From positions 7,262-71,261 of the forward strand of contig JAWAEW010000001.1 of the NCBI GenBank assembly GCA_038891035.1: a DNA stretch of 64,000 bases, written 5' to 3'. Each line of letters opens with the position of its first letter. The stretch's first letter is position 1. Source of the DNA: Candidatus Anstonellaceae archaeon. Its GTDB lineage: Archaea > Micrarchaeota > Micrarchaeia > Anstonellales > Anstonellaceae. Shown here piece after piece: positions 7,872 through 17,051 of this stretch. The notes under the pieces are model-generated. The model was not told the origin of the DNA and searched no databases. It saw only the letters and a list, made by a program, of their open reading frames with translations. A program made the translations under genes and the position numbers.

Positions 7872-9404
7872 GTGGCAGCATTTAACTTAAAAGACAGCAT
7901 TATTCCGCGCGCTTATCAGCTTGCAATAGCAAATTCTGCACTTTCTGCAAACACCTTAGTAGTTCTCCCGACAGGACTAGGAAAAACACTAATTGCCTTT
8001 CTTGTCATGCAAGAACAGCTCAAGAAAGGCAAAGTGTTCTTCCTTGCGCCCACCAAGCCGCTTGTGCTTCAACACCTGCAAAGCTTCCTTCAGGCAACTG
8101 ATTTTCCTCCAGAGCATGCTGCTGCAATAACAGGAGAAATCAGGCCAAAAGACCGAATTGCCCTCTGGCAAAAGCAAGTGTGTTTTTCTACCCCGCAGAC
8201 CCTTCAAAATGACATTATCGCAGGAAGGTGCAGCCCTATCTGTTCACTTTGTGTGATTGATGAAGCTCATCGTGCGGTTGGAAAATATGCATACACGTTT
8301 GTTGCCCAGGAATGCTCTAAACATGGGGCACTCATTTTAGGGCTAACTGCCTCGCCGGGTGGAGACAAAAAAAGGATTCAACAGATAGTGGACGCGTTGG
8401 GAATCAAAAACATAGAAATCCGCACCCACTCTGACCCAGATGTGTCCCCATATGTCAAGCCACTTGAAATATCATATATAAAAGTGCCTCTTGGCAAGAG
8501 ATTTTCAGAAGTACGAAGGCAGCTTGAGCTGATTCTTGCAGAACACGCAAAGCATCTTGCAAATATGGGTTTTCCCCCGCCTCTTCGCTCAAAAAAAGGA
8601 CTGCTTCAGCTGAGGGAAAAGATCCTTCAGTCTCCTTCGAAATCCAGATACTCTGCTCTTTCATATTATACAAGCATTTTCAACTTAGTACATATGCTTG
8701 AGCTTATCGAAACCCAGGGTCTTGCCACCTTCCTTTCATATGTTCAGAAATTGCAGCAGAAGGCAGAAAGTAGGGCGAAACGGAGGCTCTTTTCAGATGA
8801 AAGGTTCAAGATTGCACTTGAGCTTTGCCAATCGGCACAAGAGCACCCTAAGCTGGAGCGTCTCCTTCAGCTTGTCTCGCAGCGAAAAGGCGAAAAAATA
8901 CTGATCTTTGCCCAGTATAGAAAACAGGTTGAAACAATCGTGGAGGCTTTGCGCTCAAAAGGCATCCCAGCAGAACGCTTCCTTGGAAAGAAAGAAGGAG
9001 TGACATTTGAGGAGCAAAAGAAGACCCTGGAGAGGTTCAGAACCGGAGAATTTGATGTTCTGGTTGCTACCTCTATAGGTGAGGAAGGATTAGATATACC
9101 TTCAGTGGATACTGTAGTTTTCTTTGAGCCTATTCCATCGGAAATTCGCTCTATTCAAAGAAGAGGAAGAGCAGGCAGGTTGAAAATGGGCAGAGTCTTT
9201 GTGCTGATAACCGAAGGCACAAAAGACGAAGCCTCTTTCCGCTCATCAACAAAAAAAGAAGAAAATATGAAAAGGATTGTCCAGCGCCTTAAGGCAAGTG
9301 TGAAACAAGATAATCCTGCAGAAGCGTCTTCCATAGCAAAAAGGGAAGGCTCTCAGTCAAGGCCAAAGCGGCCTCCTCGCCAGATGAAGCTGACGGACTT
9401 TTAA
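7872..9404 (+). CDS. Hef/FANCM-like DEAH helicase without ERCC4 nuclease domain
   Basis: PRAYQ, PTGLGKT, DEAH, TASPG, EEGLDIP, QRRGRAGR. C-terminal PIP box QMKLTDF. Confidence 0.9.
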   Translation: MAAFNLKDSIIPRAYQLAIANSALSANTLVVLPTGLGKTLIAFLVMQEQLKKGKVFFLAPTKPLVLQHLQSFLQATDFPPEHAAAITGEIRPKDRIALWQKQVCFSTPQTLQNDIIAGRCSPICSLCVIDEAHRAVGKYAYTFVAQECSKHGALILGLTASPGGDKKRIQQIVDALGIKNIEIRTHSDPDVSPYVKPLEISYIKVPLGKRFSEVRRQLELILAEHAKHLANMGFPPPLRSKKGLLQLREKILQSPSKSRYSALSYYTSIFNLVHMLELIETQGLATFLSYVQKLQQKAESRAKRRLFSDERFKIALELCQSAQEHPKLERLLQLVSQRKGEKILIFAQYRKQVETIVEALRSKGIPAERFLGKKEGVTFEEQKKTLERFRTGEFDVLVATSIGEEGLDIPSVDTVVFFEPIPSEIRSIQRRGRAGRLKMGRVFVLITEGTKDEASFRSSTKKEENMKRIVQRLKASVKQDNPAEASSIAKREGSQSRPKRPPRQMKLTDF

Positions 9405-14930: not shown

Positions 14931-15109
14931 TGCCAAGGGCGTGATTTATTCCCCTCTAAAGGGTTTGAACACGCGACTTCCAGATTTCTCCTTCTGCCTG
15001 CAAACCTCTCTTTGCAGGGAATGCCATTTTATATCATCGCCATCTGGCTCATCACTCATAAGTATCAGCTTATGAGTCTGGCACTCTAACCAGGCTGAGT
15101 TACCTTGGC
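14931..15109 (-). tRNA. tRNA-Met(CAT), elongator type, with two introns (85 nt at 37/38: 14986-15070; 19 nt at 58/59: 14946-14964)
   Basis: Acceptor GCCAAGG/CCTTGGC, D stem ACTC/GAGT, anticodon stem CCAGA/TCTGG, CAT at 15074-15072, T stem GCGTG/CACGC. Loop TTCAAAT is restored after removing intron 2. Confidence 0.9.
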
Positions 15110-15163: not shown

Positions 15164-15416
15164 GGAGCGGCGGGAGGACGGCTCACCGCCCCATTGCGCG
15201 GAGGAAGTTCTGCCCACCGGAAAGAGTCCAAATCGCTTAAGGCGATATCGGGAACAGAAACGCAAACCACTTCCTTCTATGAGAATGACGTAAGGAGAGA
15301 AGGAAAGTCGGGTTGAAACGGCCCGTGTTTGGCAATAGGATGCACGGTGCAAGGCCTGTTTGGCCGCTTAGTCAAATGCCGTCTGAAACAGAAGGCAGAC
15401 TACCACCTGCCGCTCC
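15164..15416 (+). ncRNA. rnpB: RNase P RNA (compact, type-M-like)
   Basis: P1 GGAGCGGCGGGAGG/CCACCTGCCGCTCC, P4 halves GAGGAAGTTCTGCC and AACAGAAGGCAGACTA, conserved ACAGAAAC and TGAAAC elements. Confidence 0.92.
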
Positions 15417-15426
15417 GCGTGGAAAA

Positions 15427-16419
15427 ATGAAGTTCTCAAACGAAGAAATAGAAAGCGAGGCAAAAAGACTTTACAGCAGCCTTGGCAGGCTTGGCTGGAG
15501 CATGGATTCTTGCAGGCTTAGCGCCCCACTTACTTTGGAAATCAACAAGCTCAAAAAGGAAAAAAATGCAATAGTGCTAGCGCACTCCTATCAAACTCCT
15601 GATATAATTTACGGCGTTGCAGATTACACCGGAGATTCGTTTGGTCTTTCAGTTCAGGCAAGCAAAACCCAAGCAGATATCATTGTCTTTGCAGGAGTCA
15701 AATTCATGGCTGAAACTGCAAAGCTTCTCAATCCGGAAAAGCGGGTGTTTTTGCCTTCTTTGGAAGCAGGCTGCTCGCTTGCAGATGGGATAAGTGCAGA
15801 AGATGTTCGAAATCTGAAAAGACAGCATCCGGACACGCCAGTGGTATGCTATATAAACACATCTGCAGAGGTAAAGGCAGAATCTGACGTATGCTGCACT
15901 AGTGCAAATGCTGCAAAAATCATCTCCTCTTTTCGTGAAAAGAAGCTGATTTTTGTGCCTGACCAGCATATGGCACAAAACCTTGCAAGACAGACCAAAA
16001 AAGAACTAATCAGCTGGCACGCCAAATGCATAGTGCATCAGGATTTCGATCAAAGAAAAATCCAGGCAATTCGAGAGGTTTTTAAAGACATAAAAGTTCT
16101 TGCCCATTCTGAATGTTCTCCTCAAGTTGCACTTGCAGCAGATTTGGTAGGGGGCACTTCTGACATGGAAAAATTTGTCGAATCTTCCGAAGCATCTTCG
16201 TTCATGCTCATTACAGAATGCGGTCTTTCTGACAGGCTTAGAGTTCGATTTCCACAAAAGCAATTCATTGGAATGTGTGCACTTTGTCCTTATATGAAGA
16301 AAAATTCTCTTCTTAGCATCTGGCAAGTCCTTTCAAAAGAGACAAATGAAATAAAAATAGATAAGCATATAGCGCAAAGGGCACAAAAGGCACTTCAAAA
16401 AATGCTGCAGCTTTCTTAG
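15427..16419 (+). CDS. nadA: Quinolinate synthase
   Basis: LAHSYQ, GDS, VKFMAETAK, AGCSLA, YINTSAEVKA, CIVH, AHSEC, CPYM. Start moved to ATG 15427 because the longer ORF overlaps the RNase P RNA. Confidence 0.93.
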   Translation: MKFSNEEIESEAKRLYSSLGRLGWSMDSCRLSAPLTLEINKLKKEKNAIVLAHSYQTPDIIYGVADYTGDSFGLSVQASKTQADIIVFAGVKFMAETAKLLNPEKRVFLPSLEAGCSLADGISAEDVRNLKRQHPDTPVVCYINTSAEVKAESDVCCTSANAAKIISSFREKKLIFVPDQHMAQNLARQTKKELISWHAKCIVHQDFDQRKIQAIREVFKDIKVLAHSECSPQVALAADLVGGTSDMEKFVESSEASSFMLITECGLSDRLRVRFPQKQFIGMCALCPYMKKNSLLSIWQVLSKETNEIKIDKHIAQRAQKALQKMLQLS

Positions 16420-16965: not shown

Positions 16966-17051
16966 GGGCTTGTGGCGCAATGGTAGCGCGCCTGCATGGC
17001 ATGTTCTGCCCATAATGCAGGAGGCTGGGGGTTCGAATCCCCCCGAGTCCA
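16966..17051 (+). tRNA. tRNA-Ala(GGC) with 14-nt intron (17002-17015)
   Basis: Acceptor GGGCTTG/CGAGTCC with G3:U70, anticodon stem CCTGC/GCAGG, ATGG/CCAT central helix of the splice motif, TTCGAAT loop. Confidence 0.93.

Follow-up and report, generated by a model that had tools for sequence, protein, structure and literature searches.

A predicted half-size box C/D guide in an archaeal tRNA-Met intron, with C34 of its own precursor as the likely target

The 85-nt intron of a tRNA-Met gene in a 64,000-nt stretch of an archaeal contig (the window) is probably a half-size box C/D guide that methylates C34 of its own precursor in cis, before splicing. We place the probability of this reading at about 0.7; that the intron has some guide role for C34, whatever the mode, is very probable. 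Judged by sequence comparison, the guide-bearing tRNA-Met intron is real and conserved, and the element fails as a canonical four-box sRNA yet would probably work like a C/D guide.

We take the tRNA(CAT) in the window, from archaeal tRNA features, to be elongator Met and not Ile2 or initiator. The gene has two introns (Table 1), and removal of the 19-nt one restores a normal T loop. Neither ARAGORN, also with introns allowed, nor Rfam called a tRNA-Met gene at this place, probably because there are two introns, the second in the T loop. The 37/38 junction shows the archaeal bulge-helix-bulge arrangement (central 4-bp helix, 3-nt bulges) in relaxed form, and all four helix pairs can form in 77 of the 172 introns compared below. 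At the place of the 19-nt intron many relatives carry T-loop insertions that vary in length, and D-loop insertions are apparently also present in the tRNA-Met of several.

Table 1. Features of the tRNA-Met gene and its introns (positions in the window)
Feature	Position	Strand	Basis or remark
Elongator tRNA-Met(CAT) gene, two introns	14931..15109	-	sequence
tRNA-Met exons	15109-15071, 14985-14965, 14945-14931	-	C34 = 15074
Canonical 37/38 intron, 85 nt	14986..15070	-	between A37 and A38
Predicted 5' cap hairpin, 2 bp and 6-nt loop here, usually 3 bp	15061..15070	-	minimum-free-energy fold
Predicted guide, antisense to tRNA 31-37 and 2 intron bases	15054..15062	-	sequence, relatives
Predicted box D', ATGA	15049..15052	-	GA in all 12 variants seen
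Predicted kink-turn stem I hairpin, 3 bp and loop	15039..15048	-	comparison of relatives
Predicted 3-nt bulge (15038-15036) and box C' ATGATAT (15037-15031)	15031..15038	-	sheared GA 15035-15034
Second antisense element TGGCATTC, complementary to exon 22-29 (15086-15079)	15019..15026	-	minimum-free-energy fold
Variable 8-bp hairpin	14997..15018	-	absent from minimal introns; flanks join to TTCCAGA
3' strand of bulge-helix-bulge splice motif and 3' bulge	14985..14991	-	GGAG, 3/4 pairs with 32-35
Second intron, 19 nt, T loop 58/59	14946..14964	-	relaxed bulge-helix-bulge by eye

The guide CTTATGAGT is the exact complement of ACTCATAAG, which consists of exon positions 31-37 and two intron bases. 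G15057, the fifth base upstream of the ATGA, pairs with C34, which is the D'+5 register. The first-pass annotation of this DNA had described an 85-nt intron in which 9 nt are perfectly complementary to the anticodon and exon-intron junction, and this is exact in the sequence; its choice of ATGA as D', with G15057 on C34, is upheld by 172 of the 173 introns that have the guide, where GA occupies D' positions 3-4 in the same register. The first two positions of D' take 12 forms (ATGA in 94 and CTGA in 39 of the 172 introns), and base -1 varies. Shuffling the intron produced a 9-mer complement in 60 of 200000 trials and a 5-mer core with NNGA in register in 2372 of 200000. The exon-guide hairpin lies within the minimum-free-energy fold of the precursor (z = -5.6). 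The guide-target duplex is 9 bp in the window's precursor and 8 bp with the mature tRNA.

The D' box is followed by what is predicted to be a kink-turn. The first pair of the stem I hairpin is standard in 167 of 172 introns, at least 2 bp form in 163, and RTGA is present after the hairpin in all 172. At sequence level the parts of an internal C'/D' kink-turn (stem, 3-nt bulge, tandem GA) are present, with a degenerate stem II: D'1 is A in 102 of 172 introns, where it mostly faces A or G and leaves stem II mismatched (A.A in the window), and where D'1 is not A it forms a standard pair with C'6 in 50 of 70.

Two further pairings surround this core. In 100 of 116 introns the cap hairpin has 3 bp or more, where shuffles would give 34.2, and its first pair varies (T-A in 40, A-T in 33 and G-C in 16 introns). 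It continues the exon-guide helix in the precursor, that is, in cis. Of the 83 longer introns, 63 (15.8 expected) pair the second antisense element with exon 22-29 through 5 bp or more; the pairing has no room in 89 of 172 and is missing from the minimal ones. The first-pass annotation had passed over this pairing, as it had the 19-nt intron. At position 25 this pairing uses C-G in 31 introns, U-A in 25 and U-G in 7, with single compensatory changes at 26 and 28; the kin behind the covariation counts are not independent, and the switch at position 25 may represent only a few events.

tRNA(CAT) genes of relatives were gathered by a whole-gene query, which gave matches in 40 of 41 genomes, and by exon-only patterns, which matched 162 of 201 genomes of the window's phylum; part of these matches was fetched. 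Exon patterns were also applied to the phyla of G226, G223, G227, G378 and G379. In two phyla they matched few genomes (13 of 151 and 14 of 101), with many chance matches in one search, and the distribution there is incomplete. Methanobacteriota, Thermococci, Thermoplasmatota and Asgard lie outside the sample. A script returned 224 distinct candidates; a stricter filter kept 192 of these, including 3 without an intron. The 32 rows dropped before counting were chance matches, G31 genes of Ile2/initiator type and mis-split exons; among them the element is present in L005 and L082 and, by eye, absent from L403, L405 and L407. A scan of contigs with a weak pattern gave at least 121 loci, mostly chance, and among the matches listed 10 were tRNA-Met by eye or filter. 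The kin compared are not independent, seven of the 172 introns came from a scan that required the motif, and the G at D-5 is present by construction.

In the window's phylum, 121 of the 123 introns scored carry a guide to 31-36 and after it NNGA, with C34 placed at D+5. The same register recurs in all 16 introns from the phylum of G226 (likely Nanoarchaeota), in 10 of 10 Aenigmarchaeota-like introns, in 24 of 26 Hadarchaeota-like introns and in one that is unplaced. Comparison of relatives, a check that the first-pass annotation had proposed, thus showed the guide and NNGA register to be conserved, though not all of the boxes it had named. The exon and intron type of L158, L165, L218 and L251, which are named Micrarchaeota records, is that of the sample from the window's phylum, which makes Micrarchaeota the likely phylum of the window's genome. 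At L267 an exon G31 is matched by a guide C, a compensatory change. The shortest intron that keeps the core has 36 nt, and introns of 36-50 nt contain little beyond cap hairpin, guide, D', hairpin, C' and splice strand.

In two control phyla, guide and NNGA were absent from the 4 entries scored in the phylum of G379 and from the 9 scored in that of G378, which is centred on a halophile record, and the latter introns differ in this from the window's type; by eye L445, which is counted in these 9, is not a tRNA. The Haloferax volcanii guide for Cm34 is reportedly a separate RNA. The guide was likewise found in none of 8 introns from tRNA(CAT) genes that we take to be of Ile2 type. Four tRNA-Met genes (L092, L080, L392 and L260; L080 is outside the counted set) have another intron or none and are without the element. 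Their genomes, which may have a separate guide or no Cm34, keep fibrillarin; it was found in G082, G198, G539 and G237, where the element or the intron is absent, as well as in element-carrying G471. The tRNA-Met intron of L016 is expanded to 292 nt by long hairpins inserted within its 5' segment and stem I, and its core is intact.

In the proposed mechanism the nascent pre-tRNA would fold with exon 31-37 on the guide, capped by the 5' hairpin of the intron, and exon 22-29 would pair with the element after C', opening the D and anticodon stems. L7Ae would bind the predicted kink-turn and recruit Nop5-fibrillarin, C34 would be 2'-O-methylated, and the RNA would then refold to the bulge-helix-bulge and be spliced. 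The guide and the splice strand are alternative partners of C32-A35, which cannot pair with both at once, so methylation would precede splicing. Competition between the guide fold and an imperfect splice motif had been anticipated in the first-pass annotation, and the shared C32-A35 and the incomplete splice helix agree with it. The ensemble energy in the window is -68.4 kcal/mol for the guide fold and -59.8 for the splice fold, and the guide fold is the lower in 165 of 172 introns; kink-turn, tertiary and protein terms are ignored in both comparisons. With the mature tRNA the duplex is at most 7 bp in 95 of 172 introns and becomes longer only through the cis cap helix; typical guides have 10-12 nt (PMC4644070). 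Action in cis is favored because of these short mature-tRNA duplexes, because the cap hairpin covaries and because the guide fold is lower in nearly all introns. Genes for fibrillarin, Nop5 and L7Ae are present in the window's genome (G000), all over the cut-off and without internal stops. A strict four-box scan of G000 revealed no separate sRNA aimed at C34, and degenerate ones would escape such a scan. The reading as a cis half guide is weakened because stem II is weak, D'1 being so often A, and because the extra pairing lacks room in about half of the introns. Hardin and Batey found single-site C/D RNPs to be active and not site-specific (PMC1635284).

Three other explanations were weighed. 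The first-pass annotation had assembled a full C-D'-C'-D sRNA from AAGCTGA as box C, the D' box, GCGATGA as C' and a split second guide, TTCCAGA, to 39-45, which would give the intron two targets. Every one of these strings is present in the window, and its C/D-type guide, D' box and C34 target all stand; the terminal box C/D is unconserved. AAGCTGA does lie 12 nt upstream, and it occurs at spacer 12 in 2 of 172 introns, without the GA pair; a box C-like 7-mer with a GA core (at least 5/7, spacer 9-14) upstream of the guide was found in 4 of 172. GCGATGA is found at 15040-15034 in a register that is off by 3 nt: read as C', it has GA at positions 3-4 in 92 of 172 introns and a valid first stem pair in 84, against 167 for the register 3 nt downstream. 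The 8-bp hairpin and its joined flanks are real, no D box stands in register with the resulting guide, and the TTC-hairpin-CAGR arrangement is confined to 6 of the 172 introns, all of the window's genus. Only 83 of the 172 have space for both a second guide and a D box; of these, 22 have a downstream CTGA, which in 17 cases overlaps the splice strand. The intron also differs from sR50, the tRNA-Trp intron guide that we take to have all four boxes, in that two guides, to 34 and 39, in a four-box intron are not found, the guide to 39-45 being unconserved. We consider the four-box model highly improbable. The alternative that GTGATGA (15055-15049) is box C was abandoned, since GA is not kept in relatives: it stands at positions 3-4 in 81 of 172 introns and in none of 24 Hadarchaeota-like ones.

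The same half guide could serve the same target in trans, the excised intron (circular or linear) or another pre-tRNA directing methylation of C34. The entire kink-turn lies inside the intron, the window's guide forms 8 bp with the mature tRNA plus 8 bp of extra pairing, the intron of Nanoarchaeum equitans is stable and abundant (coverage 31500), and the guide in the tRNA-Trp intron acts in trans (PMC7994747). Against this, the mature-tRNA duplex is so often below the typical guide length, the cap hairpin would block extension of the helix in trans and lengthens it in cis, and the cis fold is the one of minimum free energy; we regard action in trans as rather unlikely. Alternatively the kink-turn may be a folding or splicing switch under the control of L7Ae, with the antisense keeping the anticodon loop off the splice fold and no methylation taking place. 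Positions 32-35 are indeed contested by guide and splice strands, 65 of 172 introns have a C' 7-mer that runs into the splice strand, and there is no second motif from which a standard RNP could be built. A switch would leave unexplained why C34, a known C/D target, is held at D'+5 almost without exception among guide-bearing introns and why Ile2-type introns are without the element, and it appears quite improbable. The preferred reading remains that of a half guide acting in cis.

The closest known system is the elongator tRNA-Met intron of N. equitans. Its RNA was described as a potential C/D sRNA with "no prediction" of a target (Randau 2012, PMC3491384). The printed sequence of 63 nt is from the same host tRNA and the same site as the window's intron, and shares with it the 5' cap hairpin, a segment complementary to its own positions 31-37, a further hairpin and C34 at D+5, with CTGA and a GATGA motif. 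The letters of the L267 intron equal this printed sequence and parse exactly like the window's. Randau 2012 seems to place box C in the register that the first-pass annotation used (T-to-G change), and in the available part of that paper the intron is treated without a one-kink-turn guide, conservation or extra pairing, unlike the reading given here. The Nanoarchaeum precedent named in the first-pass annotation is real for N. equitans, with no target assigned in that part of Randau 2012. Its statement that Cm34 of archaeal elongator tRNA-Met is C/D-guided is supported by PMC6601510, citing Joardar 2011. The Haloferax volcanii guide (Joardar 2011) and human SNORD97/SCARNA97 (PMC6601510) have the same predicted target, C34 of elongator tRNA-Met, reached through a C/D RNP; SNORD97/SCARNA97 is a separate guide RNA, unlike the own-intron guide proposed here.

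In euryarchaeal pre-tRNA-Trp the intron guide sR50 is, like the element described here, intron-encoded and directed to Cm34 of its own host tRNA (PMC7994747, PMC6313347). Action in cis was claimed for it at first, and action in trans was shown later (PMC7994747); it guides two sites, Cm34 and Um39, whereas the window's intron has one guide and one kink-turn. Engineered half-mers (MMG4/MMG5, BMG1) with one kink-turn and one guide methylate specifically with L7Ae; these are synthetic and act in trans, whereas the window's intron is natural (PMC9670817). The pairing with exon 22-29 resembles the "extra base-pairing" of snoRNAs next to the target, which increases methylation as much as five-fold, accompanies short guides and assists in opening structured targets; that pairing is eukaryotic and on rRNA, not of an intron on its own exon (PMC3116282).

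In the literature searched (including the available parts of PMC6313347, PMC7668247 and PMC6239191) neither the self-target nor the half-guide layout nor the spread of the element is described; most subscription papers were outside the scope of the search, and Richter 2013 or Tripp 2017 may name the N. equitans target. The proposal varies an established chemistry on an established target and does not amount to a new system. Descriptions of archaeal C/D guides present them as bipartite, and in vitro work disagrees on whether a single motif is specific (PMC1635284 against PMC9670817). A predicted natural half guide of as little as 36 nt, in four phyla, makes that specificity directly testable. 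If the intron is a half guide, this would supply a target for the N. equitans intron RNA and a reason for retention of the tRNA-Met intron, and would reopen the question of cis or trans action, which for tRNA-Trp was answered in favor of trans. A bolder version, which we advance tentatively and at somewhat less than even odds, is that self-targeting guides with one kink-turn form a widespread natural class in DPANN-type archaea and Hadarchaeota. These would act strictly in cis, the precursor being both guide and substrate, with the exon 22-29 helix in place of the terminal C/D and the mutually exclusive folds turning Cm34 formation into a checkpoint before splicing.

Some further observations concern other RNAs. 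The four-box scan gave two C/D sRNA candidates in G000 with near-consensus boxes, C3 near 58401 (-) and C16 near 9007 (-). Neither is aimed at C34, and five shuffled G000 genomes yielded no candidate. A perfect complement of one guide of the C3 candidate stands at C4:9003, roughly 100 nt beyond a match to a 23S-like motif. A search for RNA runs containing the stretch found none, and the one RNA run that was compared gave a single partial match of 34 nt, on an unrelated contig. A probable tRNA-Trp near 9397 (+) of G000:C15 is called tRNA-Gly by ARAGORN, and its short intron, unlike euryarchaeal tRNA-Trp introns, has no C/D boxes by eye. In the window an archaeal RNase P RNA gene (15166-15414, +) is divergent from the tRNA-Met gene at a distance of about 55 bp, and the ORF called at 15313-16419 overlaps its 3' end. 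At 16966-17051 (+) ARAGORN without introns reports tRNA-Cys and with introns allowed tRNA-Ala(GGC) with a 14-nt intron.
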